A stretch of 29,549 nucleotides of DNA from positions 1-29,549 of IMG/VR virus record IMGVR_UViG_3300020294_000021; one strand, written 5' to 3'. The notes beneath the pieces were generated by a model, which ran no database searches, was not told the DNA's origin, and saw only the letters and a program-made list of their open reading frames with translations. The translations under genes and the position numbers were made by a program. Of the stretch, positions 1 to 29,350 are shown one piece after another; within the stretch, counting starts at the first letter, position 1; each line of letters opens with the position of its first letter. This DNA is from a virus. Taxonomy: Duplodnaviria; Caudoviricetes.

Positions 1-16
1 GTTTAAAAGATTTCAT
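1..16 (-). CDS. 5' end of a gene running off the window (MKSFK...), possible capsid-targeted internal protein
   Basis: ATG at 16-14 overlaps the TGA of the 45-aa ORF (ATGA). Reads ATG AAA TCT TTT AAA = MKSFK, resembling the MK(T/S)F(K/Q)xF leader of T4-like internal head proteins. Only 5 codons visible. Confidence 0.45.
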
Positions 17-150
17 ATCTGATTAAATGGATATTGTTTTAGTTTTTCTTCAACAGTCCTAAGATCTATTGGAAGATGAAATTTGACTAATTTACCAGAT
101 CCACTAGGATCTATAATAAATTTAGTTGCTGGATTTACCGAATTCCTCAT
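13..150 (-). CDS. Small hypothetical protein, 45 aa (MRNSVNPATKFIIDPSGSGKLVKFHLPIDLRTVEEKLKQYPFNQI), not in ORF track
   Basis: Translated by hand. ATG (150-148) overlaps the TGA of the 169-aa gene, and its own TGA (15-13) overlaps the next ATG. ATGA coupling at both ends fills the gap exactly. Confidence 0.7.
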   Translation of the reverse strand: MRNSVNPATKFIIDPSGSGKLVKFHLPIDLRTVEEKLKQYPFNQI

Positions 151-656
151 GAATAATGGAAGTCTCTATCCTTTTTCTTATCTTTTAATTTTTTACCACG
201 TTGTCTCTTTTCCCCAGTTTCGCCATAACCATCTGGATGTGGACCTGCTTTTGCTGATCCTATATTATCAGGACTTCTTCCACTATCATCAGTATAGTGT
301 AATCTAGCATCCTTTCCTGCCTTCTTTGTAATAACTGATTCTTGACCATACTTACTACCAAGTCGTCTCATAACTCTACCAAACCTTGTCTTTGACATAG
401 TATTTGGTCTTGATGTTGAATAAGAAACTTCACGAGCATCCGATCCATCATCGTACTTATATTTTCCAGTTGATTTTTTAAAACCAATTTTATTTCGTTT
501 CAAATCATTTTCAAGATTTGATCTTTTTTTACGATTCTCATTTTCATCATCACCACGATCTGGTGATATGTGACCAGTATCAAATTTGTCAGACTTAGAA
601 AGAGATCTTGCTAATCCACCTTCACATAATTGTAAAAATTCTTGAAATGTTTTCAT
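147..656 (-). CDS. Putative capsid-internal protein with SAM lyase (T3 SAMase/DUF3293-like) motif pattern, 169 aa
   Basis: N-terminus MKTFQEFLQLCE resembles the T4 capsid-targeting sequence with an L-x-E cleavage site. Core ISPDR..ENRKKRSNLENDL..GKY..REVSY..LGSKYGQESV..ARLHY follows the SAMase motif order. Start overlaps the upstream stop (TAATG at 656). The CDS itself is secure; the function is inferred. Confidence 0.6.
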   Translation of the reverse strand: MKTFQEFLQLCEGGLARSLSKSDKFDTGHISPDRGDDENENRKKRSNLENDLKRNKIGFKKSTGKYKYDDGSDAREVSYSTSRPNTMSKTRFGRVMRRLGSKYGQESVITKKAGKDARLHYTDDSGRSPDNIGSAKAGPHPDGYGETGEKRQRGKKLKDKKKDRDFHYS

Positions 657-3600
657 TATGCTAAAGCAATTGCTCTAAAGTCTTTTAATTTAACAGGAAC
701 ACATTCATTAGTAGATGTCATTACAATCTTAATTACAAATCCACTAAATTGCTCTAAATCATCAATGCTAAACTGATACTCTGAGAAGTCATTTTGACCA
801 CTCTTATTGACTTTAGCATCTGCTCTACCGTCATTCAAACCAATATCAATAATTTGATCACCAAATCCATCACCATCTGTATCAATTAGATTTTTATATC
901 CAGCGAATGCTCTATAATTTTGAGAAACTTCACTAGAATCTGCAGTAAACAGTCTATAATAAACTCTGAAATCTGCTTCTGGTTGTACATTAGCAGCAAC
1001 AAGAACTTTTAATGAACTTGCTGGTTGCTTCAAATTAACCCTTCTTGTCACATAGATGGATCCATGTGGATCACCAGTAACTTTTGTTGTCCTAGTATCA
1101 CTAGCATAATTATCTATGCCTATTGGATTGTTAATCTTATTTCTTCCAGCAATAAATGTTGCGTTCTGAGCATCCAATACTGGTGAAAGATTGGGATCAC
1201 TGGATACCATATCAACTTTCAGTGTAAGTGATTTTTGATTTGGAAGAGAATCTAATCTAGCAGCCTCGTTAACTCTAGAAGCAATAAGTCTAGGTGTTGG
1301 GAAGAATGTAGTTTCATTTAAAATAGTAGGTTCAAATCCTTGATCAATGAAGGATACTTCGTTTCCATTAGCACTTGTACCAGTTATAGTTCTAAATGAT
1401 GAACTAACTTGTGTTTTGCCAGGTGTTATTACATTAAATTGAGCAGATAGTGTACTAAACTGATGATTCTGAGATATTCCAACAGTATTGCCACCAACAG
1501 TCTTTTCACTAATAAAGTTTAATTGATTTTTACCAGCAGCTCTATTGCCAATTCCTCTATCAATTTCCAAGTAATAATTATCAATATTAGATAGATTTCT
1601 TAGTGTAGAATTTGTTGGAATTGTATGCGTGGTATTGATTTTAGTCAATGGCATTCCATTAACTTCATATGGTTGGATAGTAGATCCGCTTTGATGAGAG
1701 AGTGCAAAAGTTTCATCAACACCCCTACCACTTAATGATAATATATTAGAAGAACCGATTACATACGATACAATCTCATTATTCAATAATGCTTCACCTC
1801 TATCAGTTGTTATACCAGCAAAATTAGCAAAAATTGACGTTGATGCTACTGATACTGCGGTAGCAGAAGCAGATATGTCTTGTGTTGTTTCAGACTTAGA
1901 AGTATCTGGTAAAATATTTGTAATTTTAATTGTGTTATTAGAACCATGATGAGCATGATTATGCTGAATAACTTCAACAATATTTCCAGAATGTAAATCA
2001 TCAATAACAACTGAATCTGCTGCAGCAGTCACTGCAGTAAGAACTGTTCTTGTATCATTATTAGCACCATAATGAATAATTTGATCACCACTGACAAATT
2101 TTTCACCCTGAACATCAGTTAGGTATAATGTATCAATACTATTTTGTTGAATATCAGTAACAACAAATTTAGCACCTGCTCCACCAGTTAATGTTGATGT
2201 CTGAGAAACATCCATAGTAACAATTTCACCAACTCTGTATCCAGATCCCCCATTAGTTAAACTACTGACACTTAATGCTCCATTAGTCGCAACAACAACA
2301 CTTCCTGATAATCCTGTACCATTACCATCTACAGAAAGGAAATTTGTAGAAGAATGAGTGGCAACATCATATCCAGAACCATTTGCTACTGGGGTTAATC
2401 CAACAGGTGTTGTTGAAATAGGACCACCTCTTTCTTCAATAACAGCAGTAATACTATTATCCTCAATATCACCAACAAGTCCTGTACTTATCTTTCTACC
2501 TACAGGTATACTTGATACAGTTGCTTCAGCAACACCAGATAAACCAACTCTAAGTTTTCTAGGTAAAGATCTAATTGGATTGCTAGGTAATAATTGAGTA
2601 TTAATATCACCAGGTTGAATAGGTGTATTATAGAAAGTTACTGATCCTGAAGGAACAAATGATGCTTTCTTAAGAGTAAACTTAAGATCTTGATATTGGC
2701 TTGGTGTCCAAATTGTACCGTTCTGTGATTTAAATAAACTACCACCAATGTATTGCTTAGTAACAACACCGAATTGAGAATCATCAGTTGTTGCAGGTAG
2801 TCCTACAGGAGGAGTCACATTCTTTTGACCCATAGTGGCAACCCACATCTCAAATCCATCAGATCCTGGTGATAAGAATACTAAAGCATACTCTTTACCA
2901 GATTCCAAGAATATTGGTGATGGAAAATTAACTGTAGTTGCTACAGACGCATCATCTGAAATATTAATATTATTTGGATTTAATGCTACTTGAGCATAAT
3001 CTTGAACAAGGAAACTTGTAGGTGTTCCTAGTTCTACAGTTCTTAGTTCAACAAATACTTTAGCATTATCATCTTTAGTTTTAAAGAATACATCAAATGA
3101 TGTTAAGAACGCTCCAGTTTCATCAACAGTAAATGATTGTGCTAGAGGATCTCTATATGGTGCTTCTACTCTCGTTGTAGATGATGTTGAATTTACACTT
3201 ATTGTAGATGTAGTTTCATTAGGTTTCTGTGAAGGTTCTGGTGGATTTCTAACTCCAACAGTACTTGTATTTACTTCTAATATTGTTCCAGTTCCTGTAT
3301 AAGTTCCACTAGCATCACTAGAAAGAGGACCAGCACCTGGAGGAGCAAATGCTCCAGTTGTATTAGCAGTTAATCTAAAGGTCTTAGTTCCTGTGTAGAA
3401 CAATACTGAAGGTTGTGGTGTTTGATTAGCATTTCTAAAGAAGAATGCCCCTAAAACATCACCCCAGTTATCAGACATGAGATCTGTATTTGTTACTGTT
3501 GCTTCAGTACCAGATGTTTCTCCAACTAACTTAGCACCCTTAACAACATAACCATAATGAGTTGTTCCATTTGCTAAGGCACTAATATCACAGTTAAACA

Positions 3601-6600
3601 AAACTGATGTTGAAGAATATGTATTTGAAGGTGCAGGTCTTGATTTATCAAATGGATCAACACTATATGACTCTACAGTAACTGCAGGATGTCCCAATCC
3701 AGCAGCAAATTCTGGTCTACTTTCATCACCAAATTTATGATTTGGTGCTTGTGCTTTAACATAACCTATGGTATAAAACCCATTCATTACCCTAACATTT
3801 TCACCAACTGTAAATCCATTACCAGATCCAGCAGTAGTTGAAATTTCAATTAATTTAGGGAATATATCAGGAACTCCACTATCAAGTTTATGAATATGTT
3901 TTGTACCTGGTTTTAATCCATTAGCAGCAAAGTAAACATTCCTAGATCTCATGAATGGATCTGTATTACCATTAATCTTAATACTTTCAACATAATCAAA
4001 TTCTTGGTTATTACCAGTTAATTGATTAGTAAAACTAGTCTCTACAGTTTGTGTTGTAGTTGTAGTGGTTGTTGTGGTGGTATCAATATGATTACCATCA
4101 AACTGTCCATGTGTATTTGGATCATCCTCTCCAGGATCAACTTCAGTTACAGTTACATCTACATCAGTTGCTGTTGTTGTGTTATCAGAAACAACATTAG
4201 ATATTGTATTCCAAGTATTACCAGTAGACTCTGTTCTCTTATTGTCAACATAAATTGTTCTTGTCCAGTTATCTGATGGTGGATCTAATTGAATAGCACC
4301 AACATAGGTAATAACATTAAATGGATTAATATTTTCAAAACCAGATGCTTGTGGTTGGACAATCCAATTATCTTCAGTATAATCTAAAGTTATTAAATCT
4401 CCAGTCTTCTTGGTATTGCTATCCAACAAACTTAAGTTGGATGTCATATCAGCAGTTGTTGCATCAATTCCAGGATTGAGTGCTAACTGTGCTTTCATTG
4501 ACCAAAAATCAACCGCACTAACTAATTGCTTATTTACAACATCAACATCACATCTTGATCCATCTTCAGTATTGAAGTTAATAAAATCTCTATTTTTAAA
4601 GTCATTAACTACAAAACCAGATTTAAATCGATCCATACCGTCAGCATCTTTGACTTGAAGTGATTTTGTATCAAGTTCAAGAGCAGTTAATGAAGTCATT
4701 ACTTCAAGATTGGTAATTCTCTTTTCAAGTTTACCAATATCTCTCATAGTAAATCTTCTATTATCATATAATCTAATCTTAGGTCCTTTAATAGGATCAT
4801 AAAGATATGGTGGGAAGGTAATCTGAGCGATTTCCATAGAATCACCAACTTCAGTTGGTGGTGCTGGATTATCGTCTGATACACCTTTAACTAATTTTAC
4901 TTGTTCATTTTTATTAATTACTACCTTATCAATTCTAGGTAAGTAATAACTATATCCAAGAACTGTACTTTCATCTGGTGTAACAACATATCTTGTAACA
5001 GTTTCAAATACTCTATTCTCATATGCGAATGGTGATTCAGCATTACCAGATGGTACGGTTACATCAGCAAATGCCTTAACTCTTGGTCTAAAATCAAGAA
5101 CATCAGATGCTCTATTACCAGCAATAGCAGGAACATCATTTGTAAATCTATTTCTAGAATATGAATTTACTGTATAGAAGTCACCTATAGTTCCAGCATT
5201 TTCATAATGATCAAAAATAATCAATAATCTCTTAGAAGGATTGGTAGAATTACCTCTCCTCATAATTCTAGAATAGTCGCAGAACTGTTTTCTATGACCC
5301 TTATCTAGAGTATAATTTGATGTTCTATCAATATAATTACCTTCAATTGATTTTTGTATATTTGCAGTAATTTGAGATTCTTTAAAAGTTACAGATTCAC
5401 CAGCAATAAATCTATTTCCATTTAAATATACAAATTCAATTTTATTTCCAACATTAGGTCTGTTTACAACTTGACCAATAGCTCTACTATCTACTCCTAA
5501 GACCTGTTCACCAACAAAAGTATTTGTATTAAGATCTAATCCAGATACAAATTCTAAAGTATCAAGAGTTGGTTTAGAATTATCAGTTGATTCTAATACA
5601 GCATGAACCTTAACAGCATCAGGAACATTTAATGATATTTCTTTATCTTCAACACGTAGACCATAAGCATTACTTTGTGTAATAAATGTAGAAAGTCCTA
5701 CTGAACTTGTTACCTCTAGTTGAGCACTTCTATTATAAGTTTTACCTTTACTACTGAGTCCCAACTTCTTCATAGTAACATTAACTGTTATATTACTATC
5801 CAAAACTCCTTGGTTTGATGGATTGGCAGTATCCCATTCTCCAGGTCTTTGTACATTAAATCTTATTGCAGAACCACCAGATAAAATTTCTACTCTGTCT
5901 GATGTTAATTTTTCAATAGTACCATCATTATAGTGAATTGAATATCTTTCAGCATCAAATGGTTCAAAGAATGCAGTTGTAATACCTAAAGCACCATCTG
6001 CTCCAGAATTTTCAAATACTTGACTAGCTTGAACTACTAAATTTCCATTATAAGTACCACTTGACTCTAATGACTTACCAGAAACCTGTCTCGATACTAT
6101 AAGATTAGAATCTGATAAATCTACAGTAGAAATATTTCTCTTAGGTAATCTACTATAAAGTCCAGATCTATTAAAATTGACTATTTTAGGAACTTTAACT
6201 GTAAATGTTGAACTAACTGTTGTGCTAGTTCCTGGTAAATCTTTATCACAGATACCAGTAACATCAGCAGGTGCTGCTGTAAGAGTAACAGTACCACCAT
6301 CACTACTAATAGCAGAAACTACATTATAAACTGGATCAGTTGAAGTGCTATTTGAATATCCAAGTATACTATCTACTTTTACACCATTAACACCAGAAAA
6401 TCTTCTTTGTGGACAGGTCGCAGTAGTAACATTACTTCCATCAGTAGCAACATTTAATTGATCCGTTTTAGAGAAATTTGGTAAAGTTCTATCATAAAGA
6501 ACAGCATCTGCAGTAAAATCTTTTTGAAGAGATCCGACAGTTGTTGGTTGGAAAACTGATTTTATATCATCAATGGTATATTGTGTTACAGCAGATACTG

Positions 6601-8266
6601 AAGCTGTACATGTATCTAATCCAACACTACTTGTTCTTTCATTGAATACTAACTTTTCACCAGCAACAAAATTTCCAGTAGTTTGAGAAACATTTATAGT
6701 ACCTGCAGTTGGATGATCAGCAACATATGCTTCAGCACCACTACTCATTCCCCTAACTTTAGATCCAACTGGAGCTAAAGTATTTTGCTGATAAGTTAAT
6801 CCACCAGCACCATTACCAATTTCTAATGCTGTATATGTTTGGAGATCATACATGTATAGATCCCATTCAGTAGTTGCATCCTTATAAGTGTCATCTGAAG
6901 GAGAAAATGAATAAACACGAGCTTCACCAACTTTAGTTCCAGCACCAGCAGTTGGAACACCAGTTCCCTTTCTTTGACTGAAAAGATCTACATTATTAGC
7001 AAGTTTACTGCCCGTTGATGAGTTTCCAAGGTTTACGAGAGGAGTTCCATGTGGATTATTAATTCTTAAAAGACTTCCCATCTTGAAAGATATTGAGGAA
7101 GATTTTATGGACTTAGTATCTCTTGGTTTTTCAACATCTAAAACTGTAGTACCCGTTATTGGTACATCAAATCCCCTAACATACGCTGTGCCTGGTGATA
7201 ACTTTATACACGCTAAATCATCGTTAGGTGTATTAAGTTCGTCTGTTTTCTCACCCTCCACAAATAAACCATTAGATCCTATTTCATCATTCAATGAATT
7301 TTGAACATTGACTGTAAATGGTCTTATAGCATAGTTACCAGATTCATCGTATGTTCTCTTAGCAAGATATTTTCTTATCTCAGAATAAAGAGTACTATTC
7401 TGTATTTTCTTGACTTCACCTTTTTTTACTTTAACTAATTCTACAAAATTAGTATCATCAAAGTCATCAAGTGCTTTTTTCGCTAATTTAACACTAATTT
7501 TAAACCTATCCGCACCTGGAGCAGCAAAATTAGTAAAACCTTTTGCATTATCATTTAAAGTAGAATCATCATTAGAAGATACAGTTTCTTCAATAATTTC
7601 AAATCCAACTCTATATGATGGTTTGTTTGTATATGGTTCTAATACTATTAGAGATTTTGTTACATCTACAAAAGTACCTCTTATAAAATAGACACCATTA
7701 TCTACACCAACAGCAGATCCAGTTGCTGTAGAATTTTCACTAACCAATGTTAGTACAGTATCACCAGAATTTAATGTTGTATTCCCATAAGTAACATTCT
7801 CATCAAGAACTAATATTTCTCCATTTGGGAATGGTTCACTTGCACCAACACTATCAGACTCTGTATACTTTACAAATATTGTAATATCATCAACACCTTC
7901 TGCTGGTGGTAAAACATAATTAACAATTTTACCTACTATCTGAGAGTTTTGACCTCTTACCTTTGTTCCACCATTAGCTATTAATGAATCAAGGTATATA
8001 CTAACATCTATACCTAAATGATCATCATTTACCTTACATGAAAAATATGTACTATCATATGTGACAGATCCAGGTATAACCATAGATCCTTCTCTGAATA
8101 TATGATTACCGAAAGATTCTATCTGATTCTGTAATATTGATTGGAGTCCTGTTAATTCTCTTGCTTGAACTGGATATCCAGGTTTAAACAAGACCTTATA
8201 ATAGTTCTTCGCCTTATCAAAATCATCGTAATAAGGACTTATATTTAAATTAGTCTTTTGTGGCAT
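656..8266 (-). CDS. Large virion structural protein, VrlC-like / DUF4815 family, baseplate-associated, 2536 aa
   Basis: N-terminus TNLNISPYYDDFD..NYYKVLFKPGYPVQARELTGLQSILQNQIE; internal APGADRFKI, KRTYDESGNY, YYLPRIDK, RRFTMRDIGKLEKRI, DPLAQSF and GSLFKSQNGTIW; C-terminal FVIKIVM..DFRAIALA. Typical of the large protein following gp8 in cyanomyoviruses. Confidence 0.85.
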   Translation of the reverse strand: MPQKTNLNISPYYDDFDKAKNYYKVLFKPGYPVQARELTGLQSILQNQIESFGNHIFREGSMVIPGSVTYDSTYFSCKVNDDHLGIDVSIYLDSLIANGGTKVRGQNSQIVGKIVNYVLPPAEGVDDITIFVKYTESDSVGASEPFPNGEILVLDENVTYGNTTLNSGDTVLTLVSENSTATGSAVGVDNGVYFIRGTFVDVTKSLIVLEPYTNKPSYRVGFEIIEETVSSNDDSTLNDNAKGFTNFAAPGADRFKISVKLAKKALDDFDDTNFVELVKVKKGEVKKIQNSTLYSEIRKYLAKRTYDESGNYAIRPFTVNVQNSLNDEIGSNGLFVEGEKTDELNTPNDDLACIKLSPGTAYVRGFDVPITGTTVLDVEKPRDTKSIKSSSISFKMGSLLRINNPHGTPLVNLGNSSTGSKLANNVDLFSQRKGTGVPTAGAGTKVGEARVYSFSPSDDTYKDATTEWDLYMYDLQTYTALEIGNGAGGLTYQQNTLAPVGSKVRGMSSGAEAYVADHPTAGTINVSQTTGNFVAGEKLVFNERTSSVGLDTCTASVSAVTQYTIDDIKSVFQPTTVGSLQKDFTADAVLYDRTLPNFSKTDQLNVATDGSNVTTATCPQRRFSGVNGVKVDSILGYSNSTSTDPVYNVVSAISSDGGTVTLTAAPADVTGICDKDLPGTSTTVSSTFTVKVPKIVNFNRSGLYSRLPKRNISTVDLSDSNLIVSRQVSGKSLESSGTYNGNLVVQASQVFENSGADGALGITTAFFEPFDAERYSIHYNDGTIEKLTSDRVEILSGGSAIRFNVQRPGEWDTANPSNQGVLDSNITVNVTMKKLGLSSKGKTYNRSAQLEVTSSVGLSTFITQSNAYGLRVEDKEISLNVPDAVKVHAVLESTDNSKPTLDTLEFVSGLDLNTNTFVGEQVLGVDSRAIGQVVNRPNVGNKIEFVYLNGNRFIAGESVTFKESQITANIQKSIEGNYIDRTSNYTLDKGHRKQFCDYSRIMRRGNSTNPSKRLLIIFDHYENAGTIGDFYTVNSYSRNRFTNDVPAIAGNRASDVLDFRPRVKAFADVTVPSGNAESPFAYENRVFETVTRYVVTPDESTVLGYSYYLPRIDKVVINKNEQVKLVKGVSDDNPAPPTEVGDSMEIAQITFPPYLYDPIKGPKIRLYDNRRFTMRDIGKLEKRITNLEVMTSLTALELDTKSLQVKDADGMDRFKSGFVVNDFKNRDFINFNTEDGSRCDVDVVNKQLVSAVDFWSMKAQLALNPGIDATTADMTSNLSLLDSNTKKTGDLITLDYTEDNWIVQPQASGFENINPFNVITYVGAIQLDPPSDNWTRTIYVDNKRTESTGNTWNTISNVVSDNTTTATDVDVTVTEVDPGEDDPNTHGQFDGNHIDTTTTTTTTTTQTVETSFTNQLTGNNQEFDYVESIKINGNTDPFMRSRNVYFAANGLKPGTKHIHKLDSGVPDIFPKLIEISTTAGSGNGFTVGENVRVMNGFYTIGYVKAQAPNHKFGDESRPEFAAGLGHPAVTVESYSVDPFDKSRPAPSNTYSSTSVLFNCDISALANGTTHYGYVVKGAKLVGETSGTEATVTNTDLMSDNWGDVLGAFFFRNANQTPQPSVLFYTGTKTFRLTANTTGAFAPPGAGPLSSDASGTYTGTGTILEVNTSTVGVRNPPEPSQKPNETTSTISVNSTSSTTRVEAPYRDPLAQSFTVDETGAFLTSFDVFFKTKDDNAKVFVELRTVELGTPTSFLVQDYAQVALNPNNINISDDASVATTVNFPSPIFLESGKEYALVFLSPGSDGFEMWVATMGQKNVTPPVGLPATTDDSQFGVVTKQYIGGSLFKSQNGTIWTPSQYQDLKFTLKKASFVPSGSVTFYNTPIQPGDINTQLLPSNPIRSLPRKLRVGLSGVAEATVSSIPVGRKISTGLVGDIEDNSITAVIEERGGPISTTPVGLTPVANGSGYDVATHSSTNFLSVDGNGTGLSGSVVVATNGALSVSSLTNGGSGYRVGEIVTMDVSQTSTLTGGAGAKFVVTDIQQNSIDTLYLTDVQGEKFVSGDQIIHYGANNDTRTVLTAVTAAADSVVIDDLHSGNIVEVIQHNHAHHGSNNTIKITNILPDTSKSETTQDISASATAVSVASTSIFANFAGITTDRGEALLNNEIVSYVIGSSNILSLSGRGVDETFALSHQSGSTIQPYEVNGMPLTKINTTHTIPTNSTLRNLSNIDNYYLEIDRGIGNRAAGKNQLNFISEKTVGGNTVGISQNHQFSTLSAQFNVITPGKTQVSSSFRTITGTSANGNEVSFIDQGFEPTILNETTFFPTPRLIASRVNEAARLDSLPNQKSLTLKVDMVSSDPNLSPVLDAQNATFIAGRNKINNPIGIDNYASDTRTTKVTGDPHGSIYVTRRVNLKQPASSLKVLVAANVQPEADFRVYYRLFTADSSEVSQNYRAFAGYKNLIDTDGDGFGDQIIDIGLNDGRADAKVNKSGQNDFSEYQFSIDDLEQFSGFVIKIVMTSTNECVPVKLKDFRAIALA

Positions 8267-9921: not shown

Positions 9922-9929
9922 TATTTATA
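9922..9929 (-). promoter_or_regulatory. T4-type late promoter (gp55-dependent) TATAAATA upstream of gp8
   Basis: Plus strand tatttata at 9922-9929 is an exact TATAAATA on the minus strand, in the 44-nt gp7/gp8 intergenic gap, about 30 nt upstream of the gp8 ATG. Confidence 0.85.
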
Positions 9930-27670: not shown

Positions 27671-28297
27671 TTAATTTATGCCATGTTGATAAGAATTCTG
27701 CGGAAATTCCTCAATCCAACCGTTCATAATGTACTTATTACCAGTTAAAGGTGGATTTCCACGGTGTGTATGAGTCCATCCTGCAGGAAAAACAATGATT
27801 TTACCTTTCTTTGGAGCAATCCTACACCTTTGATATAAGAATTCAGTCTCTCCACCTTCAAATCCATCATTTAAGTAAGTAATGACGACTAACTTACGAT
27901 AGGTGTCAGGAGCACATGCATCATGATGCCACGTATGATACCCTTCAGAGGGACGAGTCTTCTGTAGTTTACAATACTTGTACTCAAAGGGAGTATTTTT
28001 AAGTATTTCATATGTTTCCATGTAATGATTAAGTACACTCATTACAATATGATTCCAATCCTGTGCGATTGGTAATGTAGTATTATAGACACTCTGTTCT
28101 TCATGCTGTAATAGTTGTGTAAGAAACAGTTGTTCGTTCTTTACTGCACCTGTACTACGAGGAGTAATTAGACCAGCACCAGCAGATGCCATACGCTCAT
28201 AAAAATCGACAAATTTATCTCCATCAAGGTTACTTTGATATTCGGAAATAAAGTTGTCGTGATTTCTATAGCCCGTGATTTCGGGGGATTGACTCAT
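27671..28297 (-). CDS. 2OG-Fe(II) oxygenase (prolyl-4-hydroxylase-like family common in cyanophages), 208 aa
   Basis: HxD motif in GYHTWHHD, YLNDGFEGGETEF, distal His in FPAGWTHTHRG, and a basic 2OG-binding position in GNKYIMNGW. Confidence 0.92.
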   Translation of the reverse strand: MSQSPEITGYRNHDNFISEYQSNLDGDKFVDFYERMASAGAGLITPRSTGAVKNEQLFLTQLLQHEEQSVYNTTLPIAQDWNHIVMSVLNHYMETYEILKNTPFEYKYCKLQKTRPSEGYHTWHHDACAPDTYRKLVVITYLNDGFEGGETEFLYQRCRIAPKKGKIIVFPAGWTHTHRGNPPLTGNKYIMNGWIEEFPQNSYQHGIN

Positions 28298-28439: not shown

Positions 28440-28595
28440 TTAATCTTCAATAAATTCAGTTTTAATATGAGAAGGATCTGGTGTTCCATCGATATAGAAG
28501 TCCTGTGCCAAATCCTCCATAGTGTTAAAATACTCGTCTTGAGAGAGATCCTCATAAGCAACCTTGCCATCAATTAGAATATTATAACGAGTCAT
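28440..28595 (-). CDS. Small acidic protein, 51 aa (MTRYNILIDGKVAYEDLSQDEYFNTMEDLAQDFYIDGTPDPSHIKTEFIED), not in ORF track
   Basis: Translated by hand. ATG overlaps the TAA of the 251-aa gene (TAATG at 28593-28597) and the ORF fills the gap exactly. Confidence 0.85.
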   Translation of the reverse strand: MTRYNILIDGKVAYEDLSQDEYFNTMEDLAQDFYIDGTPDPSHIKTEFIED

Positions 28596-29350
28596 TAGAT
28601 TACCCTTGTCTTCTCATGACCGACTCGAACTCTTGGATCACACCAGATCTCGAAACCTGCCTCCTTTGCATCCAAGCAGAATGAGACATCTTCGCCACAC
28701 ATGTCTTGGACTTCGCCACTTTCAAAGATTTGCATCTTCGGAGCGAACCAAGGATATGGCATACCTTCATGCTCAAATACTCCATTCTTGATGAGTAACC
28801 AACCAAAACCAGTATAGTCTACTGTAAATGGTTTCTTTCTCTTTGAGATACTTTCAATGGTTTCATGATTCATCACACCACCATTAGTACGGAAGTCATC
28901 CTCCTCTAACCAATGAGCAACTGATGTAGTCTTACCATCTTCTGTACAATACCAACCACCAGCAAGATCCTGATCCATTAGAACTAATTGCCAGAACTTC
29001 TCTGTATTGAATACTATATCACTATCAATCCATAACTGATAGTCATACTGTAACTTACCATCCCAAGGTTTCTGATCAGGTCCTCTTAAGACGTTAGCAC
29101 CTAAGCACTTACATCTTGCGAAGTTAACCATTGATGAATAATCTTGGGAGATCTGTATCGAAGCCTGTGCTTGGACAAGATCAAAGCATAACTGTACAAA
29201 ACTCTTTAGAAATTGATATGAAACTCCACGACCTGGTAAACAGAATACTACTGTCTTTCCTTTAATGAGTTCTCTTGCTTTATCGTAATCCCACTCTGCT
29301 TCTTTTTTTACCACAGGGGATTTCGCTTTAACTGTAAATCCTTTTGACAT
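28595..29350 (-). CDS. GT-A fold glycosyltransferase-like protein, 251 aa
   Basis: VVFCLPG strand, NFARCK helix, YDYQLWIDSDIVF (DxD), TGFGWLLIK..VFE, GEDVSFC and WCDPRVRVGH match the GT2-like motif order. Donor and acceptor unknown. Confidence 0.75.
   Translation of the reverse strand: MSKGFTVKAKSPVVKKEAEWDYDKARELIKGKTVVFCLPGRGVSYQFLKSFVQLCFDLVQAQASIQISQDYSSMVNFARCKCLGANVLRGPDQKPWDGKLQYDYQLWIDSDIVFNTEKFWQLVLMDQDLAGGWYCTEDGKTTSVAHWLEEDDFRTNGGVMNHETIESISKRKKPFTVDYTGFGWLLIKNGVFEHEGMPYPWFAPKMQIFESGEVQDMCGEDVSFCLDAKEAGFEIWCDPRVRVGHEKTRVI

Follow-up and report, generated by a model that had tools for sequence, protein, structure and literature searches.

T3, a T7-like phage, makes its SAM lyase (SAMase) early. 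This enzyme (gp0.3; PDB 7OCK, 8BB1) binds MetK through its N-terminal tail and a loop, is reported to act in E. coli with ~10,000 copies per cell plus MetK inhibition, and is inactive as E68Q/Q94A (bioRxiv 10.1101/2023.02.27.530186). Svi3-3 (PDB 6ZM9, 6ZNB), another phage SAM lyase, is a trimer with active sites between its subunits. The report on it describes three strictly conserved residues in SAM lyases and conserved ligand contacts that include G56, E69, Q104 and Y58; activity fell 4500-fold in E69Q and 1500-fold in E69A, whereas the losses in Y58F and E105Q were fivefold and threefold (PMC7877911). The PII-like SAM lyase fold and its key glutamate are also described for SAM-AMP lyases such as AcrIIIB4, which cleaves SAM-AMP rather than SAM and is tied to type III CRISPR-CorA systems (PMC12255297).

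For delivery from the virion, the described precedent is the set of T4 internal proteins, Ip1-3, which bear a leader, are injected and act against restriction (PMC12373910). The first 10 residues are reported to be enough for packaging, with positions 4 and 7 mattering most, and the protease gp21 to cut after L/I-X-E (PMC9026906). The function of this capsid-targeting leader has been proven in T4 only. Both the SAM lyase family and T4 capsid targeting are already known, and a virion-associated SAM ‘hydrolase’ of the T4-like cyanophage S-CREM2, ORF6 (OR473000), was published in 2023 with the same injection hypothesis that we consider here (PMC10665884). Its authors detected 19 ORF6 peptides (26.3% coverage) in CsCl-purified virions and proposed that this SAM hydrolase passes into the host cell and there guards the phage DNA against restriction-modification (R-M), cautioning that such proteins were possibly co-purified contaminants (PMC10665884). 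The sections on ORF6 in that paper mention neither a leader nor an activity test.

The window, by which we mean the whole 29.5 kb stretch of viral DNA analysed, is a T4-like cyanophage baseplate region. Its minus strand holds gp25, gp6, a gene of 5101 aa, gp8 and a DUF4815 gene of 2536 aa, and the lyase gene comes next. Ahead of the baseplate genes lies ordinary cyanophage content, namely a 2OG-Fe(II) oxygenase and a phrog_1574 protein that weakly matches a glycosyltransferase. The features referred to below are as follows.

147..656, minus: SAM lyase gene (P0001), 169 aa, from the ORF call and PF23780; homolog of PSSM2_114
621..656, minus: capsid-targeting-like leader MKTFQEFLQLCE, residues 1-12, by likeness to the starts of T4 internal proteins
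252..551, minus: PF23780 match, residues 36-135 (Pfam); the fold match spans about residues 20-149
459..467, minus: G64-x-Y66, corresponding to G56/Y58 of Svi3-3 and G55/Y57 of T3
429..431, minus: E76, corresponding to E69 of Svi3-3, critical there according to PMC7877911, and E68 of T3
336..344, minus: Q105-E106-S107, corresponding to Q104-E105-S106 of Svi3-3 and Q94-D95 of T3
150..251, minus: basic C-terminal tail, residues 136-169, of low model confidence
656..8266, minus: 2536-aa DUF4815 virion gene, upstream of the lyase
9922..9929, minus: T4-type late promoter consensus TATAAATA before the gp8 gene, the exact copy nearest upstream of the lyase
13..150, minus: 45-aa ORF overlapping the lyase stop (ATGA), with no family match
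1..16, minus: first residues (MKSFK) of the following ORF, which runs off the window
27671-28297 and 28595-29350, both minus: 2OG-Fe(II) oxygenase and phrog_1574 protein, respectively

A first-pass annotation made from the letters of the window had placed a SAM-lyase-like domain at 147..620. That range holds residues 13-169 plus the stop; the full gene extends to 656 on the minus strand and includes the leader, and the plus-strand frame over 147-620 is riddled with stops. The proposal had been built on motifs, all of which do occur in the order given: GHISPDR (residues 28-34), ENRKKRSNLENDL (40-52), TGKY (63-66), AREVSY (74-79), RRLGSKYGQESVITK (97-111), ARLHY (117-121) and IG (132-133). Its spacings are exact, with 10 aa from Y66 to E76 and 29 aa from E76 to Q105, and the T3 SAMase pattern that it gave agrees with the sequence of the T3 PDB chain. 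The motif alone is weak, because a bare G-x-Y..E..Q-E pattern arises in ~1% of 20,000 shuffles of the protein; the family assignment is carried instead by the Pfam match, the fold matches and a profile alignment to T3 SAMase.

Pfam family PF23780 (SAM lyase) matches residues 36-135 with 31 bits against a cut-off of 28, a margin of 3 bits (E 2.7e-7). An AlphaFold2 model, built from 70 of 120 listed close homologs (query counted), has a mean pLDDT of 69; values drop below 50 in residues 1-13 and over most of the tail. When this model was searched with Foldseek, ranks 1-6 were all phage SAM lyases, Svi3-3 first (E 2.4e-4 and 4e-4) and then T3 SAMase chains, the outcome that the first-pass annotation had anticipated. 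These two enzymes were also the best matches in VIA-align, where T3 SAMase reached Z 10.8 (rmsd 4.6, 118 aligned, 15% identity) and Svi3-3 Z 7.7 (rmsd 3.8, 103 aligned); T3 alone stands clear there, because unrelated ferredoxin-like folds score from Z 7.2 down. The model supports the PII/ferredoxin-like alpha-beta sandwich fold of SAM lyases for this protein. The PHROGs matches were two families of no known function and a weak one (E 0.01) labelled ‘SAM-dependent methyltransferase’, an identity that we rejected on fold, and no family in PADLOC or NCBIfam matched the protein.

PDB sequence searches with the single sequence or with close homologs found no SAM lyase, so a diverse alignment was needed; an alginate lyase and a G protein were hit by chance only. 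We aligned 57 full-length, mostly single-domain homologs, hand-picked with fragments and most long fusions left out, and at identities down to 23% no column but those of G64, E76 and Q105 is invariant. Searched against PDB sequences, the resulting profile gave two hits only, T3 SAMase (E 2.5e-6) and Svi3-3 (E 0.005); SAM-AMP lyases (the C. botulinum enzyme and AcrIIIB4) had no PDB sequence match to this profile and were unlisted in the fold searches, an absence from the listing that does not speak against them. The protein almost certainly belongs to the phage SAM lyase family.

In the profile alignment, G64, Y66, E76, S78, Q105, E106 and S107 stand opposite G56, Y58, E69, S71, Q104, E105 and S106 of Svi3-3, and the first, second, third, fifth and sixth of these opposite G55, Y57, E68, Q94 and D95 of T3, counted along the PDB chain, so the catalytic residues proposed at the outset do line up with both enzymes. 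The differences lie around them: the column of Svi3-3 Ser50, an adenine/ribose contact, is glycine here, the E-to-Q spacing is 29 against 35 in Svi3-3, and the Y-x-E of T3 and Svi3-3 reads Y-K-Y. All five core residues (G, aromatic, E, Q, E/D) are kept in 117/117 close homologs spanning the sites (120 examined) and, in a HMMER alignment, in 30/32 strong and 49/80 distant representatives; where the set is incomplete, the E76 position mostly reads K, perhaps through an alignment register slip. A catalytically altered relative, the alternative offered by the first-pass annotation, is disfavored because the active-site residues align with the tested residues of both enzymes, all of which are kept, and from these residues the protein is likely active on SAM.

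Like T4 IPI, IPII and IPIII (PMC9026906, PMC12373910), the protein combines a leader with an L/I-x-E site. Six of its first seven residues are identical to those of T4 IPII/IPIII, with aromatics at F4 and F7, and the leader ends in L-x-E, in agreement with the capsid-targeting role suggested for it; T4 (NC_000866) IPII and IPIII start MKTYQEFIAE and IPI starts MKTFKEF. L10-C11-E12 is the sole L/I-x-E in the protein, and E12 is kept in 113/117 close homologs. Assuming that the cyanophage protease has gp21-like specificity, we predict a prohead protease cut after this site, which would close a propeptide of 12 residues, inside the 10-19 expected of T4-type internal proteins.

The leader is a recurrent companion of the lyase domain. 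Of 80 viral loci fetched, 57 had a complete gene; in 31 of these the protein begins with a leader, in 23 a leader-like motif immediately precedes an internal domain, and 3 show neither. Among distant relatives, too, a leader at the start is frequent. Leader-bearing ORFs also occupy the next three positions in 14/56, 16/51 and 4/50 loci against 7/316 farther off, counts that are not independent because the loci are related; on the upstream side most neighbors were shadow ORFs within the truncated virion gene, and counts there were set aside. Long relatives (400-760 aa) have the lyase domain at the C-terminus with a leader-like motif before it, as in S-SZBM1_194 (L010 29252-31375), where TYREFIAE lies directly ahead of the domain. 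Those at P0122-P0146 are rich in K and E, and in loci L078 and L083 the front part begins like PSSM2_123; such K/E-rich, lyase-ended proteins resemble polyproteins that the head protease would process. Site counts were dropped as evidence: in 23 long relatives, L/I-x-E was expected 11.4 times in the lyase parts and 48.4 times in the extensions but counted 0 and 84 times, and 27 non-redundant cores give z -2.8, but the L/I-x-D control gives -2.7, control spacings shifted equally and the sequences are related.

The lyase ATG and the TAA of the 2536-aa ORF share base 656 (TAATG, a one-base overlap), which, with the late-operon position, bears out the proposed coupling to a late virion gene as far as sequence can. 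The genes syntenic with the 2536-aa gene, S-CREM2 ORF124 and S-SZBM1_203, encode virion proteins according to proteome data. We surveyed the slot behind this gene by searching for the last bases of the virion gene, without selecting for the lyase, in 32 contigs. A conserved 66-aa gene follows directly in 24/32, and the other 8 have an insert that in every case (8/8) starts with a leader: 3 are lyases and 5 are others. The lyase gene is thus an optional insert in a late-operon slot. The slot resembles the T-even ip loci, where unrelated cargo has only the leader in common (PMC12373910, PMC3012670) and the T4 genes are likewise optional in a variable locus (PMC12373910). The five other inserts, at the slot corresponding to window position 656 in the L099-L130 survey, are small, basic and of no recognised kind (57-86 aa). 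One contig from an RNA run joins 149 to 660, as in a strain that lacks the lyase, weak evidence with a short side of 26 letters. The place corresponding to window 1..16 is filled in close relatives by genes starting MKTFKQF or MKSFKQF, and the ORF starting MKSFK there is likely a second leader-bearing cargo gene.

Sequence signals around the gene would fit late expression. The window holds two exact minus-strand copies of the T4 late promoter consensus TATAAATA, one shortly before gp25 and one shortly before gp8, and the nearer lies 9.3 kb upstream of the lyase gene, a distance that weakens the case. A sigma-70 scan, a weak one, returned 38 sites against 50.9 expected, with none close upstream on the minus strand and no sign of an early promoter near the lyase; the nearest minus-strand site is at 1134-1106 (9/12). 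The lyase is likely made late, in a structural operon and with a capsid-type leader, in contrast to the early T3 SAMase.

S-CREM2 ORF6 allows the question of packaging to be approached through a relative. Homology to the window protein is shown by 37% identity over 140 aa (E 2e-15), a profile probability of 97.8% and a PF23780 match. ORF6 comes from a T4-like cyanophage (PMC10665884) and has the same kind of leader at its N-terminus, but it is 414 aa long against 169 aa, falls in another tree clade and lies in another genomic place. ORF6 is annotated ‘S-adenosyl methionine hydrolase (virion protein)’, whereas the clade of the window protein is annotated ‘hypothetical’. In the region from ORF6 to ORF15 (L002 1338-10832), the virion-detected, non-structural ORFs 6, 12, 13, 14 and 15 carry F-x-x-F..E-like motifs, with L at the first place in ORF13 and with one motif in the N-terminal part and one at the C-terminus in ORF12; interspersed with these genes are one for an adenine methylase and one whose annotation reads EcoRI-like endonuclease.

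Leader patterns were written after ORFs 6 and 12-15 had been seen, so the S-CREM2 counts (219 ORFs) are not blind: the loose pattern matched 6/26 non-structural virion proteins against 6/167 undetected ones (p 0.0018) and 0/26 structural proteins, and the strict pattern matched 4/26 against 0/167 (p 2.7e-4). The window protein fits the loose pattern only. Applied blind to the 218 ORFs of S-SZBM1, whose proteome is shallow, the loose pattern matched 1/12 against 4/188 (p 0.27) and the strict pattern 1/12 against 1/188 (p 0.12). In the virion proteome reported for that phage (PMC9146016), S-SZBM1_194, with 30 observable tryptic peptides, is absent among the 30 proteins of this shallow set, as are the leader-bearing proteins 191 and 192. 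The single S-SZBM1 match is a ‘cytidylyltransferase’ (NMNAT-like) that bears a leader and is detected in the virions of both phages (S-CREM2 ORF154, L006 34608-35468; S-SZBM1_140, L009 33389-34477), a candidate injected enzyme. The S-CREM2 data speak for packaging and the S-SZBM1 data against it; by analogy with ORF6 and the T4 proteins, we consider it likely that the window protein is carried in the virion.

The closest public record is the marine virus AG-345-F15 (97.6%, Salacisavirus), followed by P-SSM2 and P-SSM5 (63%). P-SSM2 has the same gene order as the window, with PSSM2_114 annotated as hypothetical, and on these grounds the host is likely Prochlorococcus. Matches occur in 34/50,697 phage records, all of them cyanophages or marine viruses; 527 viral stretches encode a relative, and at E <= 0.001 a profile search matched 363 proteins among 1.84 billion representatives. 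Selection on the gene is purifying, with dN/dS of 0.08-0.33 against 14/14 relatives compared. Metatranscriptome contigs cover the lyase gene in 3/3 runs from 2 studies, contigs that show neither strand, timing nor RNA origin. Across 185,579 prokaryote genomes, relatives turned up at three loci only, in two marine MAGs and one Nonlabens xiamenensis contig (L094-L096), which are probably viral contigs in assemblies or bins.

Our best explanation for the whole is a leader-tagged SAM lyase that would be synthesized late, guided by its leader into the prohead, cut there after E12 by the prohead protease and injected along with the DNA, where it would drain host SAM and so blunt SAM-dependent defence in the first minutes. 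By the mechanism of the known enzymes, SAM would be split unimolecularly into MTA and homoserine lactone, with E76 and Q105 holding the methionine end and Y66 the sulfonium. We infer these steps (SAM cleavage, packaging, proteolysis, injection and the defence targeted), and regard the complete chain as evenly balanced between right and wrong. Taken by itself, a counter-defence purpose is probable. To gauge the dose, we assumed a 0.6-micron cell with 0.1-0.4 mM SAM. At the Svi3-3 rate of 9.5 per second, 9-90 active sites would clear the SAM pool in 8-310 seconds, a rough sum that ignores Km and resynthesis; a small packaged dose is therefore plausible in a small cell. A virion would nevertheless carry far fewer copies than the ~10,000 of T3, which counts against the explanation.

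The defence to be blunted is the weak step. Recognisable defences are reported in only 4/17 marine strains (PMC6708340) and 0 to 1 R-M systems in each Prochlorococcus genome (PMC8262939). With so few such systems in the likely hosts, Type I R-M or BREX is possibly the wrong target, and the anti-restriction role is a putative one. An enzyme that is packaged, injected and active might instead be aimed at an undescribed SAM-dependent defence, or at host methylation or methionine-cycle metabolism during takeover; that known defences are rare, yet the gene is under purifying selection and its relatives span 527 viral stretches with all named hits (34 records) in cyanophages or marine viruses, would fit such a target. 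We think it unlikely nonetheless, given that the gene is optional, as counter-defence genes are expected to be, that R-M is present in some hosts, and that, wherever function has been tested among the T4 internal proteins and in T3 SAMase, it is directed against defence. Different chemistry in the same fold and site is a little less probable still: the protein could cleave SAM-AMP or another sulfonium, or mainly bind, as a SAM sponge or MetK inhibitor. A phage SAM-AMP lyase with the fold and key glutamate is reported to ignore SAM (PMC12255297), catalytically dead T3 SAMase to keep its anti-BREX effect through MetK binding (bioRxiv 10.1101/2023.02.27.530186), the Ser50 and Y-x-E positions differ here, and the model is nearer the T3 chain than Svi3-3. 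Set against this, every residue tested in both SAM lyases is kept, the profile found only those two enzymes among PDB sequences, and CRISPR-Cas is described as uncommon in the likely hosts (PMC6708340).

Whether the protein leaves the producing cell can also be doubted. A late lyase acting there, unpackaged, with a leader that is a relic of the insertion slot, would agree with the absence of the S-SZBM1 homolog and its two leader-bearing neighbors from virions, and the S-CREM2 detection was possibly carry-over. Against it, the leader or its internal copy travels with the domain across loci and distant phages and is under purifying selection, and late SAM loss would presumably hinder the carrier phages’ own SAM-using enzymes (an adenine methylase in S-CREM2; a cytosine methyltransferase and a SAM decarboxylase in S-SZBM1); we judge this reading, too, quite improbable. 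Least credible, and very improbable, is a basic internal head protein that neutralizes DNA and has lost its enzyme function. The mature protein does have a pI of 9.9, with K+R at 39/157 residues, and lysines of a T4 internal protein are reported to contact DNA (PMC3012670), but the invariant columns are active-site residues only.

Within the packaged, SAM-cleaving reading, a bolder version makes the leader both packing tag and lock, with the lyase silent until it is cut after E12; we offer it as speculation and think it unlikely. If true, the phage could make the lyase late without draining SAM needed by its own enzymes and bring to the next host a lyase that depletes SAM at once. Leader-tagged lyases would then be widespread injected counter-defences swapped in and out of the cargo slot across T4-like phages, their range taking in cyanophages and distant relatives in Campylobacter, Alishewanella and Lak phages, and those of Prochlorococcus phages would point to an undescribed SAM-dependent defence.

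What is new here is the proposed delivery route of a SAM lyase, partly anticipated by S-CREM2, and the surprise is limited because the concept is partly in print. We found no paper linking the leader to SAM lyases or assigning the P-SSM2 clade in a search that left subscription journals and supplements mostly outside, and the S-CREM1 and S-SCSM2R papers hold nothing on this SAM lyase family. The T3 lyase has to be expressed once the phage has entered; a lyase delivered from the virion would be at work ahead of all phage gene expression and would suit phages that inject all their DNA at once. T4 internal proteins with known targets inhibit specific GmrSD Type IV nucleases, one nuclease each, whereas a catalytic cargo protein, by depleting a cofactor common to many defences, would counter them together. 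The analysis raises the question of which SAM-dependent process is attacked in hosts mostly without restriction systems. The idea is testable now, because the gene sits, annotated ‘hypothetical’, in the cultured phages P-SSM2, P-SSM4, P-TIM40 and S-TIM4, and the leader offers a possible means to list cyanophage head cargo.

The family extends at greater distance to group II phages of Campylobacter, to Lak megaphages and to Alishewanella, Paraglaciecola and Microcystis phages (hits H76, H87 and H94-H121). Of these, Campylobacter phage CP220 CPT_0131 (L097 3923-4552) bears a leader; it is not listed in the CP220 proteome, which at 11 gel bands is too shallow to weigh. Tandem double lyase domains are found in P0189, P0201, P0224, P0234, P0263 and P0208, the last of which (1591 aa) resembles a polyvalent protein, with its two lyase domains accompanied by a GNAT domain and by a poly(A) polymerase/tRNA nucleotidyltransferase domain.
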